Notes: generated from the sequence alone by a model not told the origin. Shown: positions 11,110-63,935, counted from the stretch's first letter. The stretch is DNA of 64,000 nt from a virus (IMGVR_UViG_3300007735_000800:62278-126277), one strand, 5' to 3'. Program-made: numbers and translations.

Positions 11110-13607
11110 AGTTTTATACTGCCTGTACACTCAAAGGCAATAAAATTTTGGTTCGTGGATACAACAAGGGCAAGAGGTTTACGGACTCCGTGACCTTTAA
11201 GCCATCGTTGTACATTCGTTCAGAAAAAGAATCCAACTACAGAAGTCTCAAGAACATACCCGTCAAGAGAATGATATTCGATTCTCTCTATGACTGCAGA
11301 GAATTCTTGGATCAATACAGAGACATACCGGACTGCCCAATCTATGGAAACACTGATTTCATTACTCAATACCTCATGGAGACTTATTCGGCTGAGGTGG
11401 AATACGATCTTTCCCAAATCAAGGTAGCATATCTTGACTTGGAGTGCGAATCTGAAGGAGGTTTCCCAGATCTAGATTCACCCAACGAAAGAATCAATCT
11501 GATAACCATAAGAATCAACGGTACAACCTATGTAATAAGTTTTACTCCAGTTACCTTGCCAGATTGCAAGGTGATCATGGTTGCATCCGAAAAAGAATTG
11601 ATCAAAAAGATCTTTGAGGTTCTGGCCAAAGAGGATGTTGACATCATAACCGGATGGAACATCAAGCTCTTTGATATGCCCTATATAATAGGTAGGGCAT
11701 TGCTTTTTTACGAACCGGAAGATATACAGAGTTGGTTGCCTTTTGGTTTGATGAAGATGCGTGAGACTGATATAGGCGGAAAGAACTATAAAATTTATGA
11801 GTTCCCCGGCTATACGATTCTGGATTACATGGATCTGTATAAAAAGTTTTCCGGTACCAGCCAAGAAAGCTATGCACTGCAAAACATAGCAAAGGTGGAA
11901 CTCGATGCGCAAAAACTGGATTATAGCGAGTATGGCTCACTGCGTGAGTTTTACAAAAAGAACTTTCAAAAGTTTGCAGAATATAACGTCCAAGACGCTG
12001 TCCTGGTTGAACGACTTGACGATAAACTGAAACTTATCGATCTTGCTGTTTCTATTGCATATGAGGCAAAGATTACTTATGATACTGTATTCTTTGCTAC
12101 CCGTATATGGGAAAGCATATGCTGTGATTATTTGCTAAAGCAAAATATAATTACTCACCTTAAGAAAAAATACGACAAAGATGATCAGTTTGTTGGTGCT
12201 TATGTTAAAGACATAGTTCCCGGATTCTACAACAATGTTGTAAGTTTTGACGCGACCAGTCTGTATCCATCGATTATAATGCAATGGAATATTTCGCCGG
12301 ATACCTGTGTAAATGATGATTCATCATTGAATGCAGATTACTTTTTACAAGAAAATAAAAAAGAACTCCCGGATCTTTTGGAAGATGCCGAGTCCCGAAA
12401 TGCATGCCTCGCATGCAATGGTTCGATGTTCACCAGAGATATAAAAGGATTTATTCCAATTCTCATTGAGAGAACATTCAATCAGCGCAAGGAAGCCAAG
12501 AACAAGATGATTGAACTGGAAAAAGAATATGAACAGACAAAAAATGAAAAACTATTGCCGAGAATCGCGGCACTCAAAGTTCGGCAATCGGTTAAGAAGA
12601 TTCTCGCAAACAGCCTGTACGGTTGTCTTGGCAATCCCGCTTTTGTGTACTCATCTCCTGCACTCGCTACTGCGGTTACCGTCACGGGACAGGTAATTAT
12701 TCGCAAAGCAGAGAATTGCATGAATCAGTACATACAGAAGGTAACCAAGACCGATAAAGATTACGTCATTGCCGTTGATACTGATTCCGTATATCTGCAT
12801 CTAGACGCAATCGTAAAGCAGATTTCCAGTAAAACAAAGATAGATGATGTTACTGATTTCATCGACCAAGTTTGTGAACAGAAGATTCAACCAGAGTTCA
12901 AGAAAGAGATGGAATTGATTGCACATACTCTGGGCTGCACCGAGAACAAGATATTCTTCAAGAGAGAGGCAATTGCATCTGCAGGTATATTCATTGCGAA
13001 GAAAAGATATGCACTGTATCTCCAGGATCTGGAAGGAATCAGGTTCAAGGAACCAAAGCTCAAGATCATGGGTCTTGAGACTGCGCGCAGCAGCACTCCG
13101 GTAGTCGTTAGAAACAAACTAAAAGATTGCATAAAGATTATCCTTACAAAAACCCCAGAGGAGCTGCGAGTTTATGTGGATGAATTCTATGATGAGTTTA
13201 TTAAAATGCCTATTGAGGATATCGCAGCTCCTCGGGGTGTAAAGGGCATTGCTAAGTACGGAGACGGCATTAAAATTTATAAAACTGGAACACCAATTGC
13301 AACAAAAGCAGCTCTACTGCACAATGAATATCTTAGAAAAATGGAACTCACCAAGGACATTCAGATAATCAAAGAGAATGACAAAATGAAGTTTGTCTTT
13401 GTAAAAATTCCAAATCCTTATGGGATAGGTGGCAGGGATGCTGTGATGGGTTTTATCAACAAACCTCCCAAGGAATTTGAATTGGAAACTTACATTGACC
13501 GAAACAAGCAGTTTGAAAAAACTTTCAAAGAGCCTTTGGACAATGTTCTTCAGGCTATTGGTTGGTCGATAAGTAATGAAGTAACACTTGAATCGTTTTT
13601 TGTTTGA
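11106..13607 (+). CDS. gp43: family B DNA polymerase
   Basis: Exo DLE, SFDATSLYPSII, KILANSLYG, AVDTDS, KKRYAL motifs. Confidence 0.97.
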   Translation: MKFYTACTLKGNKILVRGYNKGKRFTDSVTFKPSLYIRSEKESNYRSLKNIPVKRMIFDSLYDCREFLDQYRDIPDCPIYGNTDFITQYLMETYSAEVEYDLSQIKVAYLDLECESEGGFPDLDSPNERINLITIRINGTTYVISFTPVTLPDCKVIMVASEKELIKKIFEVLAKEDVDIITGWNIKLFDMPYIIGRALLFYEPEDIQSWLPFGLMKMRETDIGGKNYKIYEFPGYTILDYMDLYKKFSGTSQESYALQNIAKVELDAQKLDYSEYGSLREFYKKNFQKFAEYNVQDAVLVERLDDKLKLIDLAVSIAYEAKITYDTVFFATRIWESICCDYLLKQNIITHLKKKYDKDDQFVGAYVKDIVPGFYNNVVSFDATSLYPSIIMQWNISPDTCVNDDSSLNADYFLQENKKELPDLLEDAESRNACLACNGSMFTRDIKGFIPILIERTFNQRKEAKNKMIELEKEYEQTKNEKLLPRIAALKVRQSVKKILANSLYGCLGNPAFVYSSPALATAVTVTGQVIIRKAENCMNQYIQKVTKTDKDYVIAVDTDSVYLHLDAIVKQISSKTKIDDVTDFIDQVCEQKIQPEFKKEMELIAHTLGCTENKIFFKREAIASAGIFIAKKRYALYLQDLEGIRFKEPKLKIMGLETARSSTPVVVRNKLKDCIKIILTKTPEELRVYVDEFYDEFIKMPIEDIAAPRGVKGIAKYGDGIKIYKTGTPIATKAALLHNEYLRKMELTKDIQIIKENDKMKFVFVKIPNPYGIGGRDAVMGFINKPPKEFELETYIDRNKQFEKTFKEPLDNVLQAIGWSISNEVTLESFFV

Positions 13608-13621
13608 GGTATAATAAAACC

Positions 13622-14197
13622 ATGACTTGGAAATATAGTACAGATGTTATGAATGGTAGATACACCATTCATTGGAGTCCCAGTACGTATGGAAACCCAT
13701 ATGTCAATTCAATACAACAAATTGATTTGGGCGATATTTCTTTTCAAGATGTGACTTTTGTTTATGATATTAATAAACACTCGGGTTATATTTGTGCTGT
13801 CATAAAAGATAAACAATCGTCGCAAACCTATGACATTCCTACATTTATGGTAACTGGTGCATTTTTGAATGATATGGGTTTGAACTGCGAAGATAAAACA
13901 CCAAAAGACGATAAATTTATTGAAAAAGTAATTTTGATTTTGAACGAAACTGGATTTTGGAATAGCGCATCAACTAAGCAGAAAATGACGAAAAAGCCTA
14001 CTAAAACTTATACCATAAAAAATTTGGAATATGATCCTAATTTGTTTTATGAGAAAAAACCAACTCAAGTAGATGACAGTTCTAAACTCAAGTATGAAAT
14101 AAAACAAAAAGATGCATTGATTGCCGAATTGAAAGAGCAGATTCAGGAACTAAAAGAAGACATTGAAATGCTAAAAGCAGTAAATCAGGAGTATTAA
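13622..14197 (+). CDS. hypothetical protein, C-terminal coiled coil
   Basis: Start placed at ATG 13622, 6 nt after TATAAT (13610-13615). Confidence 0.6.
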   Translation: MTWKYSTDVMNGRYTIHWSPSTYGNPYVNSIQQIDLGDISFQDVTFVYDINKHSGYICAVIKDKQSSQTYDIPTFMVTGAFLNDMGLNCEDKTPKDDKFIEKVILILNETGFWNSASTKQKMTKKPTKTYTIKNLEYDPNLFYEKKPTQVDDSSKLKYEIKQKDALIAELKEQIQELKEDIEMLKAVNQEY

Positions 14198-14200
14198 GAA

Positions 14201-14503
14201 ATGGTAAAGAAACTTAAATCTAGATATGGTGATGAACGAATTATTACGCTTCTTGAAGATGGACGTTACCGAATCGAAGGCAGGTCTCTTTATACTCGCC
14301 ACGGCACTGGTCTATTTGACTTTGAAGGCGGTCCATGCTATATCATTGGTGATAGACTTCTTGATGTTGAAGACACCCCTGTAATAACCAATATAGAAAT
14401 TGATGAAAGCAACCTTGCAGATAACTATGCAAGTGTTATACTTTCCGTTAAGAAAGCAAAAAATGTCAAAGTATCTAAAAAATCTAATAAGCAAAATCGA
14501 TAA
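14201..14503 (+). CDS. hypothetical protein
   Basis: Intact ORF in the replication operon. Confidence 0.55.
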   Translation: MVKKLKSRYGDERIITLLEDGRYRIEGRSLYTRHGTGLFDFEGGPCYIIGDRLLDVEDTPVITNIEIDESNLADNYASVILSVKKAKNVKVSKKSNKQNR

Positions 14504-15789: not shown

Positions 15790-15826
15790 TGCTGGACTTT
15801 TTTGAAAAAAGCGATACAATAAAAAC

Positions 15827-17242
15827 ATGGAATCAGTAATTCTAAAGAACTTGGTCCTCAATGAGGACTATGCTCGCAAAGTTGTACCTTTTCTGCACGA
15901 AGAATATTTTCACGACAAGTGTGAAAAGACTATCTTTGGCATTGTAGGTAAGTTTATATTAAAATATAACAATATTCCCACCAAAGATGCAATTGTTATT
16001 ACTTTGGAGAATGAAAAAACTCTTGGAGAAGTTGAATTCAAGAAGTGTGTCTCTATATGCGATGAGATGTACAAAGAGGGAGAAAAGTCGGATACAACTT
16101 GGCTTGTAGAGAATACAGAAAAATTTTGCAAAGAAAAGGCAATTTACAATGGTATCATGGAATCCATCGGTATCATTGAAGGCAAAGACAAGGAAAAAAC
16201 TCAAAATGCTATTCCTGAAATCATGTCTAAGGCTTTGTCTGTTTCTTTTGACACTAAGGTTGGGCACGACTTTCTTGAGGACGTAGATCAACGATATGAC
16301 TATTACCATAGAGTTGAGGAAAAAGTCCCGTTTGATCTAGACATGTTTAATACCATAACAAGAGGCGGCACAAGGAAGAAAACACTTAACGTTGTCATGG
16401 CAGCTTCTGGTGTTGGCAAGAGTGCATTTCTTTGCCATCATGCAGCCGCATGCCTATCACAGAACCTAAATGTTCTTTACATAACTCTTGAGATGGCAGA
16501 AGAAGAAATTGCCAAGAGAATTGATGCAAATCTTCTTGATACGGACATGCACGATCTTGAAAAAATGCCACTTACCCAATATGAAGGTAAAGTTGAAAAC
16601 CTGAAGAGGACTTGCCGTGGACGATTGATCATCAAGGAATATCCTACAGCAGCAGCAAACGTAACTCATTTCAAAAATCTAATCGAAGAACTCAAGATCA
16701 AGAAAAAGTTTACTCCAGATGTAATTTTTGTTGATTACTTGAACATTTGCTCATGCGCAAGGTTTAAACTTGGAAACGGCATGAACAGCTATACCTATGT
16801 AAAAGGAATCGCAGAAGAACTCAGGGGTATGGCAAAGCAGTTTAATGTTCCTCTCTGGACGGCAACCCAGGTTAACAGAGAAGGCGCAAAGAGCAGTGAT
16901 ATGGAAATGACCGATACTTCTGAAAGTTTTGGTTTGCCACAAACTGCAGATTTCTTCTTTGCTTTGATAGAGAATGAAGAACTCGCTGCATCTGGTCAGA
17001 TCATGGTAAAACAATTGAAGAACCGTGGAAATGACCTCACCAAGAATAGAAAGTTCCTTGTTGGTGTTAATAAGTCGAAGATGAAATTCTATGATGTGGA
17101 CAACACAAACAATAATTTGGTAAACTCCAACAACAACGATGATGAAGATCTTGGATCTGGATTTGATGGAAAAGCATTCAACCCACAATTTGGTAAGAAG
17201 AAGAACAAAGCCTTGAACTGGACCTTTGAAGGCGCTAAATAA
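15827..17242 (+). CDS. gp41: DnaB-like replicative helicase
   Basis: AASGVGKS, YITLEMAEE, IIKEYPT, VDYLNI, TATQVNREG motifs. Confidence 0.96.
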   Translation: MESVILKNLVLNEDYARKVVPFLHEEYFHDKCEKTIFGIVGKFILKYNNIPTKDAIVITLENEKTLGEVEFKKCVSICDEMYKEGEKSDTTWLVENTEKFCKEKAIYNGIMESIGIIEGKDKEKTQNAIPEIMSKALSVSFDTKVGHDFLEDVDQRYDYYHRVEEKVPFDLDMFNTITRGGTRKKTLNVVMAASGVGKSAFLCHHAAACLSQNLNVLYITLEMAEEEIAKRIDANLLDTDMHDLEKMPLTQYEGKVENLKRTCRGRLIIKEYPTAAANVTHFKNLIEELKIKKKFTPDVIFVDYLNICSCARFKLGNGMNSYTYVKGIAEELRGMAKQFNVPLWTATQVNREGAKSSDMEMTDTSESFGLPQTADFFFALIENEELAASGQIMVKQLKNRGNDLTKNRKFLVGVNKSKMKFYDVDNTNNNLVNSNNNDDEDLGSGFDGKAFNPQFGKKKNKALNWTFEGAK

Positions 17243-34005: not shown

Positions 34006-34171
34006 TTGGCAATCTTTCCTGCTTGACAGACTTGGGAAGCTGGCCAATCGCGTCAAGCTTGCGAAGTGTACCAACCTTTGCCTCCATGAGGCTCTTTGCG
34101 CGGTTACGGGCAATCCGCTCCTTGCGCTTCTTGTGACGACGAGATGTAATACGTTGCTTAGAATTAGGCAT
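33998..34171 (-). CDS. 57-aa highly basic protein (not in ORF track)
   Basis: MPNSKQRITSRRHKKRKERIARNRAKSLMEAKVGTLRKLDAIGQLPKSVKQERLPNG*; ATG 6 nt after TAAAAT of a TTGACA promoter. Confidence 0.65.
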   Translation of the reverse strand: MPNSKQRITSRRHKKRKERIARNRAKSLMEAKVGTLRKLDAIGQLPKSVKQERLPNG

Positions 34172-34175
34172 GCTA

Positions 34176-34319
34176 TTATTTTACCTTCTTTTTTGTTTTT
34201 GTCAACTTTTTCTTCTTTCTTTTGGGAGTGTTAAAAATTTTATCCCAATTTTTTGAATAAATTTTCATGTTTACTGAACGGTAATTGTCGCCTTTTCCGG
34301 CTCCATATGATTCTTCCAT
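34176..34319 (-). CDS. small basic protein (not in ORF track)
   Basis: MEESYGAGKGDNYRSVNMKIYSKNWDKIF... followed by a Lys-rich tail. Confidence 0.45.
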   Translation of the reverse strand: MEESYGAGKGDNYRSVNMKIYSKNWDKIFNTPKRKKKKLTKTKKKVK

Positions 34320-34367
34320 ATTTTAAATATAACATAGAGCAACCCGAAGGCAAATATAAATAATTTT

Positions 34368-35114
34368 ATGGCAAATAAAATAAACAAATATTCCTGGATT
34401 CATGACTTAAATCGAGCTGCTATTGAAGCACAGATGTTATCTGAAGCCACAACATACTCCAATATGGTTGAATTAAATGAGGCAAAAAGAAATATACGCA
34501 TGGGTCAAATAGAAAGACCTATGATTGACATTAGCCCAGAAGAAAATGCAATTCAAGGATTGGGAAGAATAATGAAAGATATTACTGGCATGTCCCGACC
34601 CAGAATGAAAAGATTTTCAGGTGATATAGTTAACATAGGATCAAGAATTCCTGGTAATCCAAATTTTATTGCGCCTCCAAGTGAAAATGAATTATTGGCA
34701 AATATGGGTGAGGAAGAAAGATTACTAAGAGCAAGATTAGCAAAGGTCAAAGGATCAGTAGATTCAAAACCAAGAGATTTTGATGGTGATGGTGATGCAG
34801 ATGCATTTGACGTTGAAATTGATGCAAAAGATGGAATCATGGGAAATTTTGGAAATGAAACAGTACGAAGACTTCCGAGTTTTGAATTTGCTAGAAAAGA
34901 AGGAGTTCCAGAACCAAGACAGCACCCCGCACCCCAATTCTCAAGCAAGGAAGAGGCAGAGGCGTTTGTAAGACAATTGAACCAACAATCTCGTGGTGAA
35001 AATTCACTAATGGCTGATTTGGACATTGAATTGGATAAGATGAAGGCAAGAGCTGGGCGCAAGGGAACCATGAGTGAAATGGAAGCAATCGCAAGAATTC
35101 TTGGAGGTCGCTGA
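34368..35114 (+). CDS. late protein with an EF-hand-like DFDGDGDADAFD motif
   Basis: TATAAATA 5 nt before ATG; LSE/LNE motifs. Confidence 0.6.
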   Translation: MANKINKYSWIHDLNRAAIEAQMLSEATTYSNMVELNEAKRNIRMGQIERPMIDISPEENAIQGLGRIMKDITGMSRPRMKRFSGDIVNIGSRIPGNPNFIAPPSENELLANMGEEERLLRARLAKVKGSVDSKPRDFDGDGDADAFDVEIDAKDGIMGNFGNETVRRLPSFEFARKEGVPEPRQHPAPQFSSKEEAEAFVRQLNQQSRGENSLMADLDIELDKMKARAGRKGTMSEMEAIARILGGR

Positions 35115-40112: not shown

Positions 40113-40186
40113 TAAAAACTTAACTTTAGAAATAACTCGCCAAGAAATTGGCGAGTTATTATTTAATAAATACTTTGGAGAGAATT

Positions 40187-41536
40187 ATGAATCCACGACT
40201 TCTATATCTTAAAAATTTAACTCAAGTTCTTCAAGAAAAAGTTGTTGTTCTTGAAAATCAATTGAACTTATTACATGAAACAAGTATGTTTACAAGCCCA
40301 TCTGGTGAAGTTGTAGATTTTGATACCACTGCAGGAGGACATGTATACAAACCAAACATCATTGCAGACAAATATGCAATGGGTGTTCCAAATCAAGGAA
40401 AACCAAGTTCTCGTGACAGAACATCTACAACATTCAGAGGAACCACTGTAGATTATGATCCAAATGATCCTTCGTGGCCATGGAACCAACCTGGAGCCAA
40501 CGGACTTGAAGGTGATTTTAATCAGGATGGTATAGTAAATGGTTTCGATCTGGGTATAGTATTCGGTAATTGGGATCAAAATGGATCCGATGGAACCTGG
40601 CAAGTTCCAGGAGGCGGAAGACTGTTTGGTGTTGTTTTGGGTCAATGGGGGCAAACTGCCACAAATACCGGTGGTGGTGGAGGGGGCGGTGGAACCGAAA
40701 CTGGTGGTGGAGCTGGAGGTGGTGGGGGAACCGAAACTGGTGGAGGAGCTGGAGGTGGCGGTGGAGCTGGAGGTGGAGGAACTGAAACTGGTGGTGGGGC
40801 TGGTGGAGCTGGTGGTGGTGGGGGAGATTTTGATCCATCAAATCCCTCATGGCCGTGGATTAGTGGAAACGGACTGTTTGGTGATTTCAACCAAGATGGT
40901 AAAGTAGATGGTTTCGATCTTGGAATTTTTAGTGGAGACTGGGCACCATTATTTCCATCAAGTGGAAATTGGTCACAGTCTTATTGGTATGGACAAATAG
41001 CTGGTGCTGTTGGGAATAGTACGGGTAGTGGTGGAGGAGGCGGAGGTGACGGAGGTGGCGGTGGAGCTGGAGGTGGAGGAACTGAGACTGGTGGAGGAGC
41101 TGGAGGTGGTGGAGGTGGAGGAACTGAGACTGGTGGAGGAGCTGGAGGTGGTGGAGGTGGATCTGAACAACCTCACTGGCCATGGGATTCAGCTTATGGT
41201 GGAAATGGAATAGAATGGGATTTCGACCAAGATGGTACAGTAAATGGTTTTGATTTAGGTATTTTATTAGGTCAATGGGGAGAAAGAGGACCCGATGGAA
41301 CCTGGCCAACCAATATTAGTGGTTTACAGTTAGGTACACTTTTAGGAGCATGGCCCGCAGCACAAACTGGTGGTGGGGCTGGTGGCGGTGATGGAGTCGG
41401 TGGTGGACCAGACTTTGGAGAAAGAACATATGGATCGCCATCTGTAAATCAAGGAAATGTTTCTTATTATGATAAATTCCTTTTCCCAAGAAAAGAAACA
41501 AAATTTTCTAGAACAAGAAGTAGAAAAGGTAAATAA
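40187..41536 (+). CDS. Gly-rich protein with three dockerin/EF-hand-like repeats and GGGTETGGGAGG linkers
   Basis: GDFNQDGIVNGFDLG, GDFNQDGKVDGFDLG, DFDQDGTVNGFDLG; start after GGAG at MNPRLL. Confidence 0.75.
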   Translation: MNPRLLYLKNLTQVLQEKVVVLENQLNLLHETSMFTSPSGEVVDFDTTAGGHVYKPNIIADKYAMGVPNQGKPSSRDRTSTTFRGTTVDYDPNDPSWPWNQPGANGLEGDFNQDGIVNGFDLGIVFGNWDQNGSDGTWQVPGGGRLFGVVLGQWGQTATNTGGGGGGGGTETGGGAGGGGGTETGGGAGGGGGAGGGGTETGGGAGGAGGGGGDFDPSNPSWPWISGNGLFGDFNQDGKVDGFDLGIFSGDWAPLFPSSGNWSQSYWYGQIAGAVGNSTGSGGGGGGDGGGGGAGGGGTETGGGAGGGGGGGTETGGGAGGGGGGSEQPHWPWDSAYGGNGIEWDFDQDGTVNGFDLGILLGQWGERGPDGTWPTNISGLQLGTLLGAWPAAQTGGGAGGGDGVGGGPDFGERTYGSPSVNQGNVSYYDKFLFPRKETKFSRTRSRKGK

Positions 41537-41539: not shown

Positions 41540-41725
41540 TTAATACAAGTTTTTGAAGAACTCAGCAATAGTCTTGCTGAGTTCTTCTTTTGTTTTAATT
41601 AATTTATTGTATTCTTTTTCAGTATCCTTGCCATCGGTTTCAAGTCTTCCAATTTTATATTGTACATGCGCAAACTCAAAGACCATTTCTTCAATTTGTT
41701 TTGAGGTATATTCTTGACTTGGCAT
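41540..41725 (-). CDS. small coiled-coil protein
   Basis: TTGACT-16-TATATT-6-ATG (MPSQEY). Confidence 0.55.
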   Translation of the reverse strand: MPSQEYTSKQIEEMVFEFAHVQYKIGRLETDGKDTEKEYNKLIKTKEELSKTIAEFFKNLY

Positions 41726-41764
41726 GCGCATAATATATACTGTTGAGTGTAAAAGTCAAGAAAC

Positions 41765-41995: not shown

Positions 41996-42034
41996 TTCGG
42001 CAGACTATAACTCTGCCACTATATAAATATTTGT

Positions 42035-42436
42035 ATGCAAAACTTATTTGAAAATTGTTTGACATCTAAAAAACAAGGTTCGCTGGGCGAGGCAAAAGCA
42101 GTTTACGAATATACCAAATTGGGTTTTATAGTTTCAAAACCATTACAAGATTGTGATTATGATCTAATAGTGGAAAAAAATGGCTTATTAAAAAGAATTC
42201 AAGTTAAAACAACCACACAAATTCCCAAAGGCAAATATTTTGTTTGTAATTTAAGAGTTCTTGGTGGAAACCAATCGTTCAATACAGCAAAAAATAGAAA
42301 TCCAGAAGCGTATGATGAATTATTTGTTTTAGCAAATAATGGAGATTGTTGGAGCATTCCAGTAAATAATTTTAATGCATTAAGCACTTTAACTTTAGAT
42401 AAAAGATTTGAACAGTATAGATTGACAACTAAATAA
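42035..42436 (+). CDS. free-standing PD-(D/E)XK endonuclease (homing-type)
   Basis: QGSLGEAKA...P..D.DYDLIVE...RIQVKTT; inserted in the tRNA cluster behind TATAAATA. Confidence 0.8.
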   Translation: MQNLFENCLTSKKQGSLGEAKAVYEYTKLGFIVSKPLQDCDYDLIVEKNGLLKRIQVKTTTQIPKGKYFVCNLRVLGGNQSFNTAKNRNPEAYDELFVLANNGDCWSIPVNNFNALSTLTLDKRFEQYRLTTK

Positions 42437-43277: not shown

Positions 43278-43600
43278 GGTATTGTTGATAACGGATTGAA
43301 ATGCGACAACACAGGGGTTCGATTCCCCTCGGCTCCATTAGCCTAACCGAAGGATTCTGCAATTCCTTAGAGATGGCGATCCAAGTCCTCGTAGCAGCGG
43401 GGCAATCCCCGAAGTCCTAGGCTTCGGGAATCAGGGGCTGAAATGGCTTCGACTGGCGCAGAGTAATGAAGAAGGAGATACCCGTTACTGGCAACGAGGA
43501 ACGTGAAACAACAGTTGCAAATTTAATTGCCGAAGAATTGGCAATAGCTGCTTAAAGCAGTGGGGTTTCCCGGTTTTCCCGCATCTGAAAAACCGGGATT
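43278..43600 (+). ncRNA. ssrA: circularly permuted two-piece tmRNA (acceptor piece about 43278-43337, intervening 43338-43433, coding piece from 43434)
   Basis: T-arm AGGGG-TTCGATT-CCCCT plus CGGCTCCA lies upstream of GGGGCTG...TTCGAC; G3:U70 pair; tag GCA 43517 to TAA 43555 = ANLIAEELAIAA. Confidence 0.88.
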
Positions 43601-46671: not shown

Positions 46672-46689
46672 TTAAAGCTAAATATTTAT

Positions 46690-46995
46690 ATGCTTTCCTT
46701 CAAACAATTCCTCGTAGAAAAATCACCCGCATGGCAACGCAAGGAAGGTAAAGATCCTGAAGGTGGCCTCAACAAAAAAGGTGTAGCATCCTATCGCAGG
46801 CAGAATCCCGGTTCAAAACTGCAAACAGCAGTTACCGAGAAGCCATCAAAACTAAAGCCAGGATCAAAGAAGGCCAAGAGAAGAAAATCATTCTGCAGCC
46901 GCATGAAGGGAATGAAGGCGAAGTTGACATCGAAGAAGACCGCAAACGATCCAAACTCAAGAATCAATAAGTCCTTGAGAAAATGGAATTGTTAG
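46690..46995 (+). CDS. basic late protein of a T4-like conserved family
   Basis: MLSFKQFLVE leader; AWQRKEGKDPEGGLNKKG...RRKSFCSRM. Confidence 0.7.
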   Translation: MLSFKQFLVEKSPAWQRKEGKDPEGGLNKKGVASYRRQNPGSKLQTAVTEKPSKLKPGSKKAKRRKSFCSRMKGMKAKLTSKKTANDPNSRINKSLRKWNC

Positions 46996-49956: not shown

Positions 49957-50370
49957 TCAAAGATTCTCGTAGTTCTTTTCGATGAAGTTGGCAATCTTCT
50001 TGAACGAGTGGCCGTCATCGTTCATGTGCGACAGGCTTCCATAGTGGCCCTTGTCCATAACATCAAACTCTCCAAGCCTGCCCTCCATGCCAGCCCAACG
50101 CTGAACGGCAACGGGAAGTTCCTCGGCAGCACACTCACCACTGCCGTACTTCACGACATTGAAAGAGGCATCGTGATACATCTTGCCAACTTTGGTGGGG
50201 AGAGCCTTCTTCTTTTTGGCTTTCTGCTCGGCCTGATACATCTCGGTCAGGACACCCAAGCAGCAGTGCTTCTTGCCCTTGCTGGTGATCTGACAGAGAT
50301 ATGCCTCGCCCTGCTTGTACTTACCGGAGCGAAGAGCCTTGACCCATTTCATTGCGATAGTCTTGTTCAT
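49957..50370 (-). CDS. conserved phage hypothetical protein
   Basis: KWVKALRSGKYKQG...CCLGVL...LSHMNDDG.SF..IA.FIE; TATACT-6-ATG. Confidence 0.65.
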   Translation of the reverse strand: MNKTIAMKWVKALRSGKYKQGEAYLCQITSKGKKHCCLGVLTEMYQAEQKAKKKKALPTKVGKMYHDASFNVVKYGSGECAAEELPVAVQRWAGMEGRLGEFDVMDKGHYGSLSHMNDDGHSFKKIANFIEKNYENL

Positions 50371-50400
50371 GTTCCTAGTATACTCCACGAAAGGGGGAAG

Positions 50401-50757
50401 TCAATCAATCATGCCAAGAGACTTGGCAACGCTTGAATACTTTGGCTGCAAATTTTGATCAATTTTTACTTCAACATCCGTCATGGCACTCGGGCGACCA
50501 CCCACGATCTCCTCGGCCTCGACAGACCGGGACAGGTGCATGGACACTCTCTTGCGCTTGCGCTTCACCACGACAGGCTCAAACTCCACATCGAAGGAAG
50601 TCTCGTAGGATCGCATACCGCGCATGATTGGGTCTACGACATACCAAGACTCCAACGAAGTGCAGGGAAGGCTTGGCAGGGCATTGTAGGCTTCCAGAAG
50701 GCAATTGCGAAGATACTGCACCTCGCGCTTGAGTCGTTCAACATCATTGCTTTGCAT
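50401..50757 (-). CDS. hypothetical protein
   Basis: TTGACT-17-TATACT-6-ATG (MQSND). Confidence 0.55.
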   Translation of the reverse strand: MQSNDVERLKREVQYLRNCLLEAYNALPSLPCTSLESWYVVDPIMRGMRSYETSFDVEFEPVVVKRKRKRVSMHLSRSVEAEEIVGGRPSAMTDVEVKIDQNLQPKYSSVAKSLGMID

Positions 50758-53928: not shown

Positions 53929-56103
53929 TTACTTTGCGGGGGAAATGGCCTGCTGATACTCCGGGGGGAGTCCGGGCTTGATGGCCTGCCCCGCCACGAT
54001 ATCCACATACCGGGTGAGGAACACGCGGCTACCCGCCCTCTTGCCCATCGTCTTGACAAAGGTGTTCTTGATCTTGGTGAAGGTTCCGCTCTCCGCAATG
54101 GCATCCGCGTCCTTGACGATCTTGGGGGTGCGGATCAGGAAGAACGAGTCGTAGCCGGGAGCCATGTCCGGGTGGCAGATGATGGCACCGTCCTTGTACG
54201 CCTCGCGCATGGCGGTGAAGCGGGGCGAGATGCCCGTGTTGCGGAGGTGGTAGGGGAGGTTGAAGTACGCCTCCCGCTCCTTGGTGGACATGCAGAACGC
54301 GAGGTACTCCGTTTCGTGCAGCGTGTTGCTGCCCACGAACATCCCGACAAGCCTAGCGTTGATCGTCTTGCGGAGCGAGTCGAGCATGGAGCCGATGAGG
54401 ACATTGGCGAGGTTCGTGCCACGGTAGTCGTACAGGTTCATGCGGTGAGCCGTCCCGCAGACCTCGTTCATCACGGTCATCGTGCCATTCTCCGCGTGGT
54501 GGTAGTACGCCGTCTGCGACACCAAATCGTCACGGGTGTAGATGCCGTTGGGCTGACCATCGGTGACAACCATGAGGGTCGGAATCTGAATCTTCTTGTC
54601 GGCCACCCACTTGAGCATGAACTGGCTGACCGCAGCGATAGCCTCCACCGTGGGAGTGCCGTGCAGCGAGAGGCAGGCGGGAGCGTGAACGCGATCATTG
54701 TAGTTCGCGGCCTTCTCCTTGGCCTCGTCCACAAACGCACCGTACAGGTAGGCCATCATGCGCTCCCGATCAGCAGCCGAATCGGAGGACGAGAGGAGGT
54801 TGAACAGGCGCACCATGCCGTACTCAACGGAGGTGGGCTTGGGGTTGTTGATCTGCGTGAACAGGGGCGCGTAGTGGAAGTCGCCCTGACCACCCTTGCG
54901 CCTCCAGTCGTTGAAGGCATCATCGTACTTCTTGCCGTCAATGTAGGCGGGGCCGCAGTCGGTGAAGGCGAACACCTCAAACGGAATCTTGGCCTTCTCG
55001 CAGAACCAAACCAACTGGAACAACTGGAGGATGCAGTCGCTCAACCGGACGCTCATGCTGCCTGAGAAGTCGAGCATGAACACCATGCCGTGGTTCTTGC
55101 CGTCCTGCTTGACGATCTTGCTGATGAAGATATCGTCATGGGTGCGGTACTGGTGGAGGCGGTCGAGGTTCAGCATCCCGGTCTGCTTGGGACGCTCACG
55201 CCGAATCTCGTCCGCAGCCTTGCGGCGGTCGAACTGCGCGGCCAACTGGCGAACGAATGCATCGGAGTGGCGAACGAACTCGCGGTAGCCGTCCATGTTG
55301 ACGAAACCGTTGTTGCGCTCCTCAAACTGCTTGAGCAGATTGGACGAGGGGATGATGATGGTGGACAAGTCCTTCACCGGGGAGATGGTGACGCAGGAGG
55401 CGGTGAACTTCTCACCGTCCTTCTTGTCCCCTTGGCCGGGGGTGAACTCCTTGATGGCCTCGTCCATGAGGTTGCTGCCGTCCCGCCGTCCGCCCGCCTT
55501 CTGCTCCTCCTTCATCTGCTCGACCATGCTCTCCATAGAGGGGTGATCGTACAGACGCTTGGCGATATCGTAGACCTCCGCAAAGGTGGTCACGGCATCA
55601 ACCTCGTCCGCGATCTTCTGCTCCTCATCGGTGAGGTTGATCGGCAGGAAGCCCTGAACGCCCCACTTGAAGTGGAGGTTGATGCGGTTGACGAGGCTAG
55701 CCCGGTCAAAGTCCATCTTGGAGAAGCCGAACAGGTCGGTGTCCACGATCTCCTTGTAGCCAAGGAAGAAGTCGCGGCGAGTGCCGGGGAACTTCTCCTT
55801 CATCATCTTCTCGATGCGGACATCCTCGACCACATTGGCGATCCGCTGAAGGATGACCGGGTTGTAGCCCTCCGCCTCCGCAGCCTTGAGGATGGCATCA
55901 CTCTCCTCCGCAGGAGTCCACAGCGCGTGGCTGATCTCGTGCGCGATCAGCATGGTCTGCACGGTTTCCGAAACCTTCCACACCGGGAGGGTGAGGTGAC
56001 GCTGCTTGACATCGAAGGACGCGGTTTCCGCGTTGGGGTCGAAGGCGAAGGACAGGTTCTCGGTGGCGAGTGCGCGGGCGAAAATGGAGAGAGAGGTGTT
56101 CAT
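53929..56103 (-). CDS. VWA (MIDAS) domain protein with N-terminal HExxH motif
   Basis: AHEISH; LDFSGSM, GTPT, VVTDG MIDAS residues. Confidence 0.85.
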   Translation of the reverse strand: MNTSLSIFARALATENLSFAFDPNAETASFDVKQRHLTLPVWKVSETVQTMLIAHEISHALWTPAEESDAILKAAEAEGYNPVILQRIANVVEDVRIEKMMKEKFPGTRRDFFLGYKEIVDTDLFGFSKMDFDRASLVNRINLHFKWGVQGFLPINLTDEEQKIADEVDAVTTFAEVYDIAKRLYDHPSMESMVEQMKEEQKAGGRRDGSNLMDEAIKEFTPGQGDKKDGEKFTASCVTISPVKDLSTIIIPSSNLLKQFEERNNGFVNMDGYREFVRHSDAFVRQLAAQFDRRKAADEIRRERPKQTGMLNLDRLHQYRTHDDIFISKIVKQDGKNHGMVFMLDFSGSMSVRLSDCILQLFQLVWFCEKAKIPFEVFAFTDCGPAYIDGKKYDDAFNDWRRKGGQGDFHYAPLFTQINNPKPTSVEYGMVRLFNLLSSSDSAADRERMMAYLYGAFVDEAKEKAANYNDRVHAPACLSLHGTPTVEAIAAVSQFMLKWVADKKIQIPTLMVVTDGQPNGIYTRDDLVSQTAYYHHAENGTMTVMNEVCGTAHRMNLYDYRGTNLANVLIGSMLDSLRKTINARLVGMFVGSNTLHETEYLAFCMSTKEREAYFNLPYHLRNTGISPRFTAMREAYKDGAIICHPDMAPGYDSFFLIRTPKIVKDADAIAESGTFTKIKNTFVKTMGKRAGSRVFLTRYVDIVAGQAIKPGLPPEYQQAISPAK

Positions 56104-56199
56104 GCCTACAGTATAAGGGATGGTCGTGGGTGCGTCAAGCGAAACAGAAAGATTTTTTTGCGTCCGATAACTCGGCCAGCTGCAGGTACGGGTCTGGGA

Positions 56200-56588: not shown

Positions 56589-57899
56589 TTAGGCGTTGAT
56601 CGCGTACTGCGTGTCCCCGCCCTTCAGGTGGGGATCGGTGATGTCGATGGCATCCTGCACCGGGGTTCCCGCCCAATCCTTCTTGACGGGATGATCCTTC
56701 ATCCCCTCCGGGGGAGGGAGGATGGTCGGGTCGATCTTGGTGTAGAGGTTGAAGAACGCATCCTGCGTGGCGGGGTCGAAGCGGGTCAGCGTCAACTTGA
56801 TCGCCTTCTGCTTGTCACCGAAGATGGCGAACGCCTTGCAGACCTCCTCCAAGCGGCGGGTGGTGATGATATCGTCCAAGCCGCCCTCCTTGAAGCCCAA
56901 GCGGATCGTTTCCGCCCACTTGACGAGGTACTGCGCGAACTCCTTGTCCTCGCGCCCATAAGCCTTCATCTTGCGGATGATGATGCGGGCCTCAACGGTG
57001 CGGTCAGCGTAGTCCTGCTCAAACCAGTAGGAGAAGCGGTCAAGGAACGCCTCGTTCATGCACCGGGTGCCAACGAAGCGGTCAGACTCGCCCTTGCCCT
57101 TGGTGTTGGCGGTGGCGACCACATTGAAGCCAACGGCGGGCTTGATGAACGCGCCGATCTTCTTGATGTAGATGCCCTTGCCCTCAAGGACGGGCTGCAA
57201 GCACATCATGCGCTCCGTCCCAAGGTCGATCTCGTCCAACAGGAGGATCGCGCCACGCTGCATGGCCTGAACGACCCCGCCGAACACGAACTTGGTTTCG
57301 CCGTTGATGAGGCGGAATCCACCGATGAGGTCATCCTCGTCAGTCTCGGCGGTGATGTTGACGCGGATGCACTCACGACCGGAGGCCGCGCAAATCTGCT
57401 CGACCATCGTGGTCTTGCCGTTGCCGCTCATGCCCGTGATGTAGACGGGGGCGAACTGCTTGGACTTGAGGATGGTGCTGATGTCATCGTGGTGACCCCA
57501 AGGAACGAAGGTGTCGTTCTTGACGGGGACGAGCGAAACATCGGAGGACGGGGCGGCGAGGTTGTAGTTGCTGCTGCTCATGGGTTCCATTGTAACCGAA
57601 GTTTCGGAGTCGGTCAACTCATCTGAAGAAAGATTCTCATTTTCCTCACCGATTGCATCGGTGACGACGACCATCTCCGGGATGCTGTACAGGCCACGGC
57701 CAACGCGCCGGGACTTGTCTTGGACGAGCCAAGCCGGGAGGGTGCTGTAGTTGTCGTTGGGCGACATCTTGTAGGTGAGGTGGAATGCGTTGATGCACTG
57801 CTCACGGGTGTACCGTGCCTCACCGATGGACGAGGGAGTGCCGTACAGGTCGGTGAGAGCCTTGAGGAACTTTGCCTTGCGGTTGTCGATGCTGTTCAT
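56589..57899 (-). CDS. MoxR/CbbQ/CobS-like AAA+ ATPase
   Basis: GMSGNGKT Walker A, DLIGG, LLLDEID Walker B, NEAFLDRF; start MNSIDN 6 nt after TACAAT. Confidence 0.9.
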   Translation of the reverse strand: MNSIDNRKAKFLKALTDLYGTPSSIGEARYTREQCINAFHLTYKMSPNDNYSTLPAWLVQDKSRRVGRGLYSIPEMVVVTDAIGEENENLSSDELTDSETSVTMEPMSSSNYNLAAPSSDVSLVPVKNDTFVPWGHHDDISTILKSKQFAPVYITGMSGNGKTTMVEQICAASGRECIRVNITAETDEDDLIGGFRLINGETKFVFGGVVQAMQRGAILLLDEIDLGTERMMCLQPVLEGKGIYIKKIGAFIKPAVGFNVVATANTKGKGESDRFVGTRCMNEAFLDRFSYWFEQDYADRTVEARIIIRKMKAYGREDKEFAQYLVKWAETIRLGFKEGGLDDIITTRRLEEVCKAFAIFGDKQKAIKLTLTRFDPATQDAFFNLYTKIDPTILPPPEGMKDHPVKKDWAGTPVQDAIDITDPHLKGGDTQYAINA

Positions 57900-57991
57900 A
57901 CGAACATTGTAAGGCACAATCTTCTTGCCGTCAAGCAATCTTCAAAGTTTTTTTTGAGTCCGATAACCTGCCGGCTCCGCCTGGTCCTGGA

Positions 57992-58121: not shown

Positions 58122-58364
58122 TTAGGCTCCCGTGTTGTAGAAGTTCTTGTCGCACTTCTCCTGCGGCTTGCAGCAACGCTCAAGGCTGTTGATGCGAGCG
58201 TAAATCTTCTCATGCTCGCGCCAGTAGTCAGTCTCCAACTCGTTGATGCGGTGGTTCACGGCTGCGCTGCGCTCACGGAGCAGGGCGCGGGTGTAGCCGA
58301 TGGCGCAGAAGAGTGCGAGGCCGGTGAGGGACAGGTACATCAGGGTCGTGGGTTCGATGGTCAT
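58122..58364 (-). CDS. small membrane-anchored protein
   Basis: TTGACA-17-TATAAT-6-ATG (MTIEPTT); N-terminal TM. Confidence 0.6.
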   Translation of the reverse strand: MTIEPTTLMYLSLTGLALFCAIGYTRALLRERSAAVNHRINELETDYWREHEKIYARINSLERCCKPQEKCDKNFYNTGA

Positions 58365-58415
58365 GGTTCTATTATACCTCTTGGGTTGGGGTTTGTCAAG
58401 CAAAAAGTCGGGAAG

Positions 58416-58704: not shown

Positions 58705-58711
58705 AGGTCGA

Positions 58712-58986: not shown

Positions 58987-59001
58987 TTTGGTCGTATTGT
59001 A

Positions 59002-59415: not shown

Positions 59416-59424
59416 TAGCAATGT

Positions 59425-59721: not shown

Positions 59722-59724
59722 AAA

Positions 59725-59797
59725 TGCCTCCGGTGGGGTTCGAACCCACGACCAATAGATTAAAAGTCTACTGCGCTACCAACTGCGCTACAGAGGC
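59725..59797 (-). tRNA. tRNA-Lys(TTT)
   Basis: GCCTCTG/CGGAGGC, GTAGA-CTTTTAA-TCTAT. Confidence 0.92.
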
Positions 59798-59830
59798 GAA
59801 TGCCCATTGTACCCGATGGGCGCGGGTTTG

Positions 59831-60734: not shown

Positions 60735-60958
60735 TCGAAGTCCTCCTCGTCAACGAACTCATCGGCATCGAACTCATCCATGTCGGGAACATCCCGGTCA
60801 AGGTCAACCTCGCTGCCCGCGTACTCCTCCGGGTCGTAGTCGCCCACCATGCGGGTGGCCTCGTCACGGCTGTAGCCCTCGTTCATCAGTTCAACGATGG
60901 CATCGTTGGTGTCGTAGAGATCGGACTCGTCATACGGAATGTGGTCGGGGTTGGTCAT
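60731..60958 (-). CDS. small very acidic protein
   Basis: TTGACG-17-TATCAT-6-ATG (MTNPDH); D/E-rich, possible DNA mimic. Confidence 0.6.
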   Translation of the reverse strand: MTNPDHIPYDESDLYDTNDAIVELMNEGYSRDEATRMVGDYDPEEYAGSEVDLDRDVPDMDEFDADEFVDEEDFD

Positions 60959-61041
60959 GCCCCCATGATAAGGCATGAAAGGTGTCCCGTCAAGCAAACC
61001 GGGGAATATTTTTTATTATCGGTCCAAGGGGTCCGGGCCGG

Positions 61042-61096
61042 CTACTATCAGGAGGCGTCCAATAAAATCAGCGGCCTTAGGGGCCGCTGATAGTAG
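61042..61096. repeat. CTACTATC...GATAGTAG cassette 4
   Basis: Inner ATCAGCGGCC/GGCCGCTGAT stem; TTATCGG at 61016. Confidence 0.85.
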
Positions 61097-61225
61097 CCAA
61101 AGGACATGGCCCGCCCTAAAGAGGACGGGCCAGAGGTCTTGAAGGAAGCACCGTACTCCCTGTGCCCAAAGAAACTTGCAAATCTCTCCGGGTTCGCGCT
61201 GCGCGAGGCGCCTGGTGTTATTTGT

Positions 61226-61600
61226 TCAGATCACGGGTGCGCCGAACTTCTCCGTGTGCATCTCCATGAGGCGCATGACCGCATCGTCCAAGTCCACCGC
61301 CTTCTCCTCGCCCTTGGCGCGCATCTTGGCGATCATGTGGTTGTAGTAGGAGATGTTGCCCTCGGAGAGTTCGTTGATGAACTTGCGGGGATCGCCGTAG
61401 AGTTGCGTGATGAGAGCGACCACGATATCGCGCTCCATGCGGCTGAACCATGCCGGGGGCAGGCTGACGGCGAGTTCGCAGAAGGCGAGGGCCGCGTTGG
61501 TCTCCTCCGCGTCCTTCTTCGTGTCGTTGACCATGGCGAGGCAGAGGGCGAGGTTGAGGGCGAGAGCGTCGATTGCGGGGGTTCGGGTGGGCTTGTCCAT
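61226..61600 (-). CDS. hypothetical protein
   Basis: TTGACA-17-TACAAT-6-ATG. Confidence 0.65.
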   Translation of the reverse strand: MDKPTRTPAIDALALNLALCLAMVNDTKKDAEETNAALAFCELAVSLPPAWFSRMERDIVVALITQLYGDPRKFINELSEGNISYYNHMIAKMRAKGEEKAVDLDDAVMRLMEMHTEKFGAPVI

Positions 61601-61636
61601 GGTGCTATTGTACCTGTTGGTGGTGCGAATGTCAAG

Positions 61637-61924
61637 TCACGCGGTGACGATTTCTGTTTCTTTGCTGAAGTCCATCACACCAACGATGGAATCCTCGTGG
61701 AAGCGAATCCAGTCGCCTTTCTTGGTGTCGAACGCGGTGATGTAGTGCGGGTTCTCACCGCGCACAAACTTGGGATGCTTGTCCTTCGGAATCACGATCA
61801 GGTTCCGCGTGATCTTGCGGTCGTGGGTCGTGGTTCCATCCACCTTCTTGAAGGTGACGCGGATGATCTCTCCGTTGGAGAGAGCGGTGCGAATGATACG
61901 GGCGATTTCTTGAGTCGGGTTCAT
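61637..61924 (-). CDS. SH3-like / WYL-like domain protein
   Basis: VTFKKVDGT...T...IP...N..I..FD..K..W..F pattern; start MNPTQE. Confidence 0.6.
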   Translation of the reverse strand: MNPTQEIARIIRTALSNGEIIRVTFKKVDGTTTHDRKITRNLIVIPKDKHPKFVRGENPHYITAFDTKKGDWIRFHEDSIVGVMDFSKETEIVTA

Positions 61925-61995
61925 TTTCTTTTTCTTTCTTGGAGGGGTCGGGTGGGGGGCGGGGCAACAAGCCTCCACCCCCCTAGCACCACCCT

Positions 61996-62232
61996 TTAGG
62001 CGGGGTTGTTGCGGCGGGCATCCTGCCACCGGGTGACGGCCACCTCCACCGCGCGGACATAGCGGATGAGCCGCTCGGCCTCCTCGCGCACACACTTGTC
62101 GGAGCGACCGTTGCGGAGCGCGTTTTCGAGGCCCAAGGTGAAGCCGTTGACCAGTCCGTAGGCGAAGGCCATGCCGAAGTCGTTGGTGGGCGGGATTTCG
62201 ATTTCCGGGAGTTGGGTGGTGCTGTTCGTCAT
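61996..62232 (-). CDS. hypothetical protein
   Basis: TAGACA-17-TACAAT-6-ATG. Confidence 0.6.
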   Translation of the reverse strand: MTNSTTQLPEIEIPPTNDFGMAFAYGLVNGFTLGLENALRNGRSDKCVREEAERLIRYVRAVEVAVTRWQDARRNNPA

Positions 62233-62337
62233 GTCCCTATTGTAACCTCTGTTTCGGATTCTGTCTACCGTCTTGGAAACTTTTTTTTGAAAAAAGGGGA
62301 GGGGGAGATTTCTCTCAACCCCTCCCCCATCCGGGGG

Positions 62338-62721
62338 TCAGGCCGCTTCCTGGTCGCTGAGGTTCTTGAGGATGTTGCGGGCCTCCTGCTCCACCGCATC
62401 GAAGAACAACTTCGGGCAGGCGATGGAGAGGGGAACGATGTCGAAGGTGTCCGCGCACTCCCCGGCCATGATCGCGTCACCGTAGATGTGACGGCCCGCG
62501 ATGCATGAGGCGCGCAGGTTGAGGGGCGCGTCCCGGAGGAGGCCCATCTCATCGACCCACATGGCAGCGTGGTAGTTCTTGTCGAGGGACACGCGCTCCA
62601 CGATCTCGCAGCCGATGATCGGGTACATGGACGAGAGTTCGCGGGTGATCTCCACGACCGTGATCGGCTGCGTCATGGAGGCGGGGATGTGGACGGCGGG
62701 GATGTTGGAGGCGGTGCTCAT
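62338..62721 (-). CDS. DUF3846-like protein
   Basis: LSSMYPIIGCEIVERV...MWVDEMG...PLNLRAS...IYGDAI; TAGACA-17-TACAAT-6-ATG. Confidence 0.65.
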   Translation of the reverse strand: MSTASNIPAVHIPASMTQPITVVEITRELSSMYPIIGCEIVERVSLDKNYHAAMWVDEMGLLRDAPLNLRASCIAGRHIYGDAIMAGECADTFDIVPLSIACPKLFFDAVEQEARNILKNLSDQEAA

Positions 62722-62815
62722 GCACCTATTGTAACCGATGGCGGGCATTCTGTCTAGCGATTTGGAAAGATTATTTCGGGGGCCGATAACGCGTCCTGCG
62801 CCGGCGCGTCCTGGG

Positions 62816-62881
62816 CTACTATCAGGGGGCGTCCGGTAACGGGGGAGCTCCGGGCCGGCCAAGGGCCGGCCCGGATAGTAG
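62816..62881. repeat. CTACTATC...GATAGTAG cassette 5
   Basis: Inner TCCGGGCCGGCC/GGCCGGCCCGGA stem; CCGATAAC at 62783. Confidence 0.85.
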
Positions 62882-62884
62882 TCC

Positions 62885-63025
62885 CTAGCCCTCCCGGGCC
62901 AGTTCCCGCTTTCCGTCCCTCCTCAAAGCCCGAGGATCGCGGGTCTTCTTGCCCCAGGTCTTGGGGCGAAGCCTTATCCCTTGGCGGAAGGCATCGTGTA
63001 CAAAGCGTCCGGGTCGGTTGTTCAT
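62885..63025 (-). CDS. small basic protein
   Basis: MNNRPGRF... start overlaps the upstream TAA. Confidence 0.4.
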   Translation of the reverse strand: MNNRPGRFVHDAFRQGIRLRPKTWGKKTRDPRALRRDGKRELAREG

Positions 63026-63273
63026 TACTTGGCCTCCAGTTCGATTTGCTTTCTGGCGAAATCCAGTTTGTTCTGGATTCCCTTGATCGCGTTCGCATCC
63101 ATCCGACACTCCATCAGCGCATCATCGTCCTGCGTGTCGGTAATGTCGAACGACTTTGAATCCTTGAGGAGTCTAACCAACGCGTCGAACATTGCCGCAT
63201 CGATTAGGGCCAGTTCACGGGCGGAGAACTCGACCCGCGTGGTACGCTTGCGAATGGGGGCGATTGTGGTCAT
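63025..63273 (-). CDS. hypothetical protein
   Basis: Start MTTIAP overlaps the upstream stop. Confidence 0.55.
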   Translation of the reverse strand: MTTIAPIRKRTTRVEFSARELALIDAAMFDALVRLLKDSKSFDITDTQDDDALMECRMDANAIKGIQNKLDFARKQIELEAK

Positions 63274-63842
63274 TAGTCGGCCTTCCCCCGGACGATGATC
63301 CACAGCAGAGCCTGCAGCGTGGCCGGGGCCATGCACACGGTCGGCGTGGCCGCGATGCTGCGGATAGCGTCCGCGATGGCCCGGTACTCGGTGGCCGTGG
63401 GCGCATCCTTACCAAGGTCAGCAGCGCGGCACATCCACACATCGACCACGACCGCGCCCGAATCCCCGGCGATGGCACGGGCGAATGCGTTCGTCTTCGG
63501 CCCCTTCAAGCCCTTGAAGCCTTCCGTGCAGCACCGATCCGCAGCGGCCACATGGGAGCGCAGACCCTTGGGCGTGATGCCCTGCGCGTACTGGAGTGCC
63601 TTGGCCTTATTGTGCGCCCAAGTCACGCGGGGCGAGAACGCGGAGACAACGCTGGCCGCGACTTCCATGCTCCACTCCGGGCGCAGGATGGTCAGCGACT
63701 CTGCGAACGCGTTGGCCTCGGTGTACCATGCGCGGGCCGCGTGGTAATCGGCAACGGTGGCGCGGGACAGGAGCGCGATGAACGACTCGGTGGCGCGGGT
63801 GCGAACGGTTTCGTAGCGGGCGGTGGTGGTGGTGCGCGACAT
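63273..63842 (-). CDS. HhH-GPD/glycosylase-like fold protein (tentative)
   Basis: WY..A...SAFSPRVTW..N...GPKTNAFARAIAGD..AVVVDVWMCRA; TTGACA-17-TATCAT-6-ATG. Confidence 0.5.
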   Translation of the reverse strand: MSRTTTTARYETVRTRATESFIALLSRATVADYHAARAWYTEANAFAESLTILRPEWSMEVAASVVSAFSPRVTWAHNKAKALQYAQGITPKGLRSHVAAADRCCTEGFKGLKGPKTNAFARAIAGDSGAVVVDVWMCRAADLGKDAPTATEYRAIADAIRSIAATPTVCMAPATLQALLWIIVRGKAD

Positions 63843-63935
63843 GCCCCTATGATATCATGGGCGCGGGAATCTGTCAACCGATGCGCGAAGAAATATTTGA
63901 GATTATATTATCGGGCGCACCATCCAGGCCGGCGA

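Follow-up and report, generated by a model that had tools for sequence, protein, structure and literature searches.

The window examined here is a stretch of 64,000 nucleotides (nt), the right half (positions 62278-126277) of the single 126,277-bp virus contig IMGVR_UViG_3300007735_000800, which comes from an uncultured aquatic T4-like phage; positions below are those of the window unless the contig is named. Our subject is the placement of early and late promoters directly before start codons, an arrangement that we call a fused promoter and that is carried by about 40 to 45 of the roughly 170 genes (about a quarter). Homologues of T4 gp43, gp44, gp45, gp46, gp47, gp55, and RegA and of cyanophage gp33 are encoded (tblastn), among them the late-transcription trio of gp55 (3e-16), gp33 (Syn9 query, 3e-6), and gp45 (6e-29). 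The gp41 helicase is 54 to 55% identical to those of cyanomyoviruses and of Pelagibacter phage HTVC008M (54.5% for HTVC008M), and hundreds of IMG/VR contigs have about 90% gp41 identity; no close cultured relative was found. No psbA turned up in the contig, itself only about 70% complete (CheckV).

Promoters placed directly before start codons

We define d as the number of nt between the -10 box (early sites) or the TAAATA box (late sites) and the ATG. The original prediction placed 14 early and 7 late sites of fixed geometry in the window, and reading out each of them confirmed all 21; only 5 or 6 nt separate the box from the ATG at every one, with no 5' untranslated region (UTR) or Shine-Dalgarno (SD) sequence. 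All 14 early sites consist of a -35 box, a spacer of 16 or 17 nt, a TAnnnT -10 box, exactly 6 nt, and ATG. Their -35 boxes are mostly TTGACA, TTGACG, or TTGACT, with TAGACA occurring twice and TTGAAT and TGGACT once each. The early sites, with the open reading frames (ORFs) that they head and one further promoter inside the CobS ORF, are as follows.

13588..13624, + strand: early promoter TTGAAT-16-TATAAT, d = 6, ATG 13622, 191-amino-acid (aa) ORF; lies within the 3' end of the DNA polymerase gene gp43
15793..15829, + strand: early promoter TGGACT-16-TACAAT, d = 6, ATG 15827, gp41 helicase
34169..34205, - strand: early promoter, d = 6, ATG 34171, 57-aa ORF
41723..41759, - strand: early promoter, d = 6, ATG 41725, 61-aa ORF
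50368..50404, - strand: early promoter, d = 6, ATG 50370, 137 aa
50755..50792, - strand: early promoter, d = 6, ATG 50757, 118 aa; overlaps the divergent late promoter of 50806
56101..56138, - strand: early promoter, d = 6, ATG 56103, 724-aa CobT-like protein (phrog_459)
57897..57934, - strand: early promoter, d = 6, ATG 57899, 436-aa CobS-like AAA_5 ATPase
58362..58399, - strand: perfect TTGACA-17-TATAAT, d = 6, ATG 58364, 80 aa
60956..60993, - strand: early promoter, d = 6, ATG 60958, 75 aa
61598..61635, - strand: early promoter, d = 6, ATG 61600, 124 aa
62230..62267, - strand: early promoter (TAGACA), d = 6, ATG 62232, 78 aa
62719..62756, - strand: early promoter (TAGACA), d = 6, ATG 62721, 127 aa, DUF3846
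63840..63877, - strand: early promoter, d = 6, ATG 63842, 189 aa, DUF7178 (Pfam match from residue 11, profile position 9)
57579..57617, - strand: consensus promoter inside CobS ORF 56589-57899, d = 7, in-frame ATG 57581 (codon 107)

Early sites beyond those originally predicted were found on the - strand at 34319 (d = 6) and at 57581, 46559, and 46150 (d = 7), and about 20 further fused sites, early and late, fall elsewhere on the contig, five of them being early cassettes at its left end. Several candidates were rejected: sites 8920 and 10783 proved by eye to have d = 8 rather than 6 (TATAAT/TATATT plus 8 nt) and are near-leaderless at best, the promoter at 47664 is unconvincing, and the ATG at 49766 abuts the -10 box, so that this gene could not be leaderless in its present form.

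The distribution of distances between promoter and ATG is not flat. The window contains 10 copies of the strict pattern TTGAC-N16-18-TAnnnT-N6-ATG, compared with an average of 0.08 over 100 dinucleotide shuffles, and over the whole contig (126 kb) an ATG stands at d = 6 in 15 of 47 TTGAC..TAnnnT matches (binomial P = 6e-15). Between 45 and 64 kb, 39 sigma70-type sites are present, compared with 13.4 in shuffles, and they show the elements of a sigma70 promoter (-35 TTGACA, spacer of 17 +/- 1 nt, -10 TATAAT). The 20 best score 10 to 12 of 12 and all lie on the - strand; ten of these have d = 6, two have d = 7, two adjoin tRNAs, and six are otherwise arranged.

Late sites follow the same principle with a different box. 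The seven that had been predicted read TAAATA, 5 nt, and ATG in five cases and 6 nt in two, and two more with d = 5, at 22111 (included below) and 43788 (+ strand), were absent from the original prediction.

34357..34370, + strand: late box TAAATA, d = 5, ATG 34368, 248 aa; first gene past a strand switch
42024..42037, + strand: late box, d = 5, ATG 42035, 133 aa
43612..43625, + strand: late box, d = 5, ATG 43623, 198 aa; residues 2-47 match phrog_3684
46679..46692, + strand: late box, d = 5, ATG 46690, 101 aa
50795..50808, + strand: late box, d = 5, ATG 50806, 197 aa
22109..22122, - strand: late box, d = 5, ATG 22111, 98 aa
26808..26822, + strand: late box, d = 6, ATG 26820, 786 aa
31272..31286, + strand: late box, d = 6, ATG 31284, 585 aa; the TAA of the box doubles as the stop of the upstream ORF

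These sites have the character of T4-type late promoters, in that a TATAAATA-like box (TAAATA core, often ATAAATA or CTAAATA) precedes virion genes and gp55, gp33, and gp45 are all encoded; homologues of head-closure, adaptor, tail-tube, baseplate-wedge, and tube-cap proteins are among the late-fused genes. TAAATA-N5-ATG occurs 7 times in the window and 0.99 times in shuffles. Over the whole contig, with 201 TAAATA matches, ATG stands at d = 5 in 17 (P = 4e-7) and at d = 6 in 10 (P = 0.005), and 19 of these 27 matches open ORFs of 66 to 786 aa. Other distances are represented by 1 to 5 matches each, except for 8 at d = 3 and 10 at d = 12, of which only 2 and 1, respectively, open an ORF of at least 60 aa.

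Chance, compositional bias, or a chimeric assembly of GC-rich and AT-rich elements could be invoked to explain such patterns, given the jump in GC content from 34-42% across most of the window to 57-63% in the early gene block at 54-64 kb. We regard this explanation as so improbable as to be nearly negligible, since the shuffled sequences yield almost none of the observed early sites and relatives repeat the layout. Chimeric assembly in particular was rejected because several long contigs carry the AT-rich and GC-rich modules together; at least three independent contigs (68-137 kb) hold both the gp41 and the CobS modules.

The predicted transcription start and the start codon

The -10 hexamer recognized by sigma70 occupies positions -12 to -7, and RNA polymerase prefers to start where a pyrimidine at -1 is followed by a purine at +1. 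The T4 late box TATAAATA lies at -13 to -6 relative to the start (PMC1524935), a position that we carried over from T4 to the late box of this phage. With the -10 hexamer ending at -7 and TATAAATA ending at -6, d = 6 at early sites and d = 5 at late sites both put +1 on the A of the ATG. Relatives show the same one-base difference: of their 253 early sites, 131 have d = 6 and 2 have d = 5, and of their 124 late sites, 28 have d = 5 and 5 have d = 6. This shift matches the offsets of the two start sites, and a generic A/T-rich translation signal would not be expected to shift in this way. Furthermore, the base at -1 in 48 distinct early sites is C in 79% and T in 19% (98% pyrimidine) with A at +1, in agreement with the start-site preference of the polymerase.

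Evidence from the coding side concerns the start codon itself. The triplet at d = 6 past promoters with a 17-nt spacer is ATG in 48 cases and GTG in 2 (this genome and close relatives), and the gp41 start is ATG in 44 of 44 sequences; GTG and TTG make up about 20% of starts genome-wide by crude 5'-most-start calls. Homologue alignments start at residue 1 for gp41 and for the head-closure (gp4-like) profile and at residue 3 for the adaptor. Judged from sequence, the fused ATGs are genuine starts. The proposed corrections of ORF starts (for example, to 13622, 57899, 58364, 60958, 62721, and 50370) likewise look right, as the start of the longer ORF falls before the -10 box.

From this geometry we infer the position of +1 and, with it, leaderless translation. 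Host sigma70 RNA polymerase would read the early sites (TTGACA, 17 nt, TAnAAT), and polymerase carrying the phage late sigma factor gp55, together with gp33 and the gp45 clamp, would read the late sites (TAAATA core). RNA synthesis would start on the A of the ATG at both classes; the first gene of a unit would be carried on a 5'-AUG mRNA with neither 5' UTR nor SD sequence, ribosomes would bind the terminal AUG directly, and downstream cistrons in the same units would rely on SD sites or on tight stop/start coupling. We consider it probable, with good confidence, that these are real promoter-to-start-codon fusions in both classes and that they give leaderless messages for first genes. The reading of first genes as leaderless is well supported insofar as the geometry predicts +1 on the ATG. 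The broader claim that the first gene of most transcripts is leaderless, the helicase included, stands as far as can be judged from the DNA, with "most" being about right for the strong early promoters (12 of 20 with d = 6 or 7), the class on which it could be gauged.

Alternatively, the promoters may be real and their fixed spacing may serve another role, with the A/T-rich -10 or TAAATA box acting as a translation enhancer on read-through transcripts or TAA acting as the upstream stop in coupled genes. We think this quite improbable. The TAA is indeed the stop of the upstream ORF at 4 of 19 late sites, and canonical terminators are scarce, but a stop-codon artefact accounts for those four sites only, and 12 of the 19 have no same-strand upstream ORF at all, their gene being the first to follow an RNA gene or a change of strand. 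The one-base difference between the two classes follows the start-site offsets and not a shared enhancer distance, the pyrimidine rule at -1 holds, and an upstream promoter would not fit between divergent genes without running into coding sequence. One such intergenic region, at contig 12498-12532 and thus not in the window, separates the divergent gp48-like and gp4-like genes; their ATGs are 33 nt apart, with two opposed TAAATA boxes in the gap. This arrangement is kept in relatives with 26 to 38 nt between the ATGs, and since the gap is filled by the opposed boxes, leaders have no room there.

Leaderless fusion as the preferred reading has to be weighed against several observations that count the other way. 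Several promoters have d = 7 to 9, and the gap between TAAATA and the ATG of the gene divergent from the gp4-like gene ranges from 5 to 9 nt across relatives, indicating that very short leaders occur too. Six of the 20 top-scoring sigma70-type promoters either show d values of 0, 9, or 13 or are followed by a true leader with GAGG (47297 and 47908). The major capsid gene has a short leader bearing an SD sequence:

40167..40189, + strand: terminator hairpin, TAAATA, 14-nt gap with GGAGAG, ATG 40187 of the major capsid gene

In addition, canonical terminators number 16 versus 18.4 expected, and with so few of them, fused genes could also be expressed from read-through transcripts. Finally, RNA polymerase may start 1 or 2 nt to either side of its modal position.

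Conservation among relatives

More than 100 related contigs retain the layout. The promoter, 6 nt, and ATG are preserved before gp41 in 38 of 44 distinct sequences, with spacer and 6-nt gap varying freely. Upstream of CobS, 14 of 15 relatives (71 to 81% protein identity) have 6 nt and one has 7, the -10 box being TACAAT, TAAGAT, TATAAT, TAAAAT, or TATCAT. For the late class, TAAATA with 5 nt precedes the gp4-like head-closure gene in 33 of 41 distinct sequences and TAAATA with 6 nt does so in 6. Too few relatives of ORFs 13622 and 26820 were present among the retrieved loci for an upstream comparison.

Variation in CobS itself bears on the promoter inside its ORF. In one relative (L124), CobS begins at the position matching codon 107, behind a d = 6 promoter, indicating that CobS of this phage has a 106-aa N-terminal extension; two CobS isoforms, from starts 57899 and 57581, may thus be made here.

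The distribution of the two classes differs. In a set of 58 loci linked to CobS, d = 6 sites number 2 to 20 per locus in 17 close relatives and in one more at 49% identity (a GC-rich locus has a single promoter match, likewise with d = 6) and 0 to 2 per locus in those of cyanophage-like type. With the same scripts, neither the early d = 6 peak nor the late d = 5 peak was found in T4 or cyanophage Syn9. Pelagibacter phage HTVC008M has the late peak, with 14 TAAATA-N5-ATG sites of which 12 open ORFs of 85 to 687 aa, and no early d = 6 peak by these scripts. Early fusion therefore marks one uncultured lineage, with late fusion being wider. The layout as a whole is a design common to a clade of uncultured, aquatic T4-like phages.

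Translation strategy and comparison with known phages

Leaderless translation had been proposed to let the phage translate while SD-led host initiation is shut off, in concert with RegA and the transfer-messenger RNA (tmRNA). In a takeover of this kind, the phage would disable SD-dependent initiation or shift initiation factors such that translation is confined to 5'-AUG messages, aided by RegA and the tmRNA. Both of these genes are present:

501..935, + strand: regA homologue, 41% identical to T4 RegA
43278..43555, + strand: permuted two-piece tmRNA; Rfam model start 43278, first base 5 nt past a TAAATA box (within 43262-43278)

A precedent exists in Thermus thermophilus phage phiYS40, which has phage-wide leaderless middle and late transcripts with experimentally mapped 5' ends and in which initiation factor IF2 reportedly goes up and IF3 down (PMC3594737). 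Nevertheless, we consider takeover unlikely. A four-base SD core is found at 27% of 5'-most starts, compared with 7% at random positions (and with 45% in T4 by the same crude method), late operons and the major capsid gene included, and strong GGAGG or AGGAG sites occur at 35114, 19171, 24640, and 52103, some of them in late operons. The early genes, expressed before a takeover could take effect, would be leaderless as well, and no initiation-factor-like gene turned up among the only about 30 proteins scanned. The proposed escape from an SD-led shut-off is thus unsupported, as the phage itself uses SD sites, at internal genes among others, and nothing ties either regA or the tmRNA to the layout. 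A related and similarly doubtful proposal is that this whole lineage of abundant aquatic phages runs its early and late programs largely on 5'-AUG messages and biases host translation, for example by altering initiation-factor balance or modifying ribosomes, while the phage tmRNA frees ribosomes engaged on host mRNAs; if true, such active bias toward 5'-AUG messages would be a new translational takeover strategy in the T4 superfamily. The simplest origin of the fused promoters seems to be a host adept at leaderless mRNA combined with intergenic compaction; a role in takeover is the less likely reason.

Textbook accounts of phage gene expression are modeled on T4, whose early and late messages have SD-bearing leaders that are targets of RegA and others. 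The late promoters described here share with those of T4 the core box, the presence of gp55, gp33, and gp45, and a position before virion-gene homologues. They differ in spacing, since the distance from TATAAATA to ATG in T4 shows no 5-nt peak and is most often about 21 to 24 nt (4 at d = 23 and 3 at d = 24 among 32 boxes), far enough to accommodate a leader with an SD sequence. The early cassettes resemble the promoter-early stem-loop (PeSL) cassettes of T4-type phages RB49 and phi1, in which strong sigma70-like promoters are arrayed across a plastic region, each preceding a small early ORF or a short run of them, with some terminator hairpins; hairpins are present here at some early junctions (61132-61067 and 53866-53840). 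However, a PeSL cassette closes with an SD sequence ahead of its start codon (Arbiol et al. 2010, PMC2839356), whereas the cassettes here lack both leader and SD sequence, and the block that contains them exceeds the remaining genome by about 20 GC points.

Leaderless mRNAs are familiar from other settings, for example, from mycobacteria (PMC4633059). Lambda cI transcribed from PRM and mycobacterial genes likewise have a -10 box a few nt before an AUG that is both +1 and start, but these are single genes or features of host genomes and not a program over two T4-like promoter classes. Phages phiYS40 and P23-45 come closer, as lytic phages whose transcripts of one temporal class begin, for the most part, at the start codon. 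Nonetheless, phiYS40 is unrelated and infects a thermophilic host in which leaderless mRNA is common, whereas the present phage is T4-like and has early (sigma70) and late (gp55-type) promoters both fused. HTVC008M, a cultured T4-like pelagimyophage, shares the late fusion and differs in having no early peak. Searches of the literature on leaderless mRNA with T4-like phages, cyanophages, late promoters, or HTVC008M found no description of this layout, and the Melnitz/HTVC008M paper predicts promoters with no comment on spacing.

In a large uncultured aquatic branch of the T4 superfamily, many units of both promoter classes thus appear to have a first gene that has lost its leader. If true, start and promoter calling would change in thousands of genomes from environmental phages, given that choosing the longest ORF yields a wrong start at many fused sites. 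The layout would also provide a sequence-only marker for the lineage, and perhaps for hosts proficient in leaderless translation, and HTVC008M on Pelagibacter would offer a cultured system for studying gp55-type polymerase and leaderless mRNA.

Some additional features of the window touch on individual promoters. A perfect TTGACA-16-TATAAT is followed by GGAGGCACC and an ATG at d = 9 (60417-60454, - strand); its SD-like GGAGG lies upstream of the predicted +1 and would be usable only on read-through transcripts. A second TAAATA-N5-ATG at 43777-43790 (+ strand, ATG 43788) is in frame within ORF 43623 and is either an internal start or chance. The palindromic TAAATATTTA at 46672-46692 carries TAAATA on both strands, 5 nt before ATG 46690 (+ strand) and 11 nt before tRNA-Pro (- strand), and is a possible bidirectional late promoter.

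Genes for stable RNAs in the window comprise 11 tRNAs and the tmRNA. The TAAATA box and 5 nt before the tmRNA would have its precursor begin at the predicted late +1. Its best clan model is the betaproteobacterial two-piece type with a score below the model cut-off, so that a proteobacterial lineage fits best at that sub-threshold level; comparison with named phages matched nothing useful. TTGACA-17-TACAAT promoters at 59797-59834 and 58986-59024 (- strand) lie 8 and 9 nt before mature tRNA-Lys and tRNA-Leu, whose leaders would accordingly be 1 to 3 nt long. The GC-rich early block spans window positions 54000-64000 and also contig 1-1400, and CobS neighborhoods in relatives mix GC content likewise (0.43-0.60). 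Nearly all phage tRNAs read A/U-ending codons, and together with the high-GC early block, this suggests a high-GC host and two codon regimes per genome. At 58415-58491 (- strand) lies a tRNA-Ile whose anticodon, TAT, is unusual among bacteria and phages.

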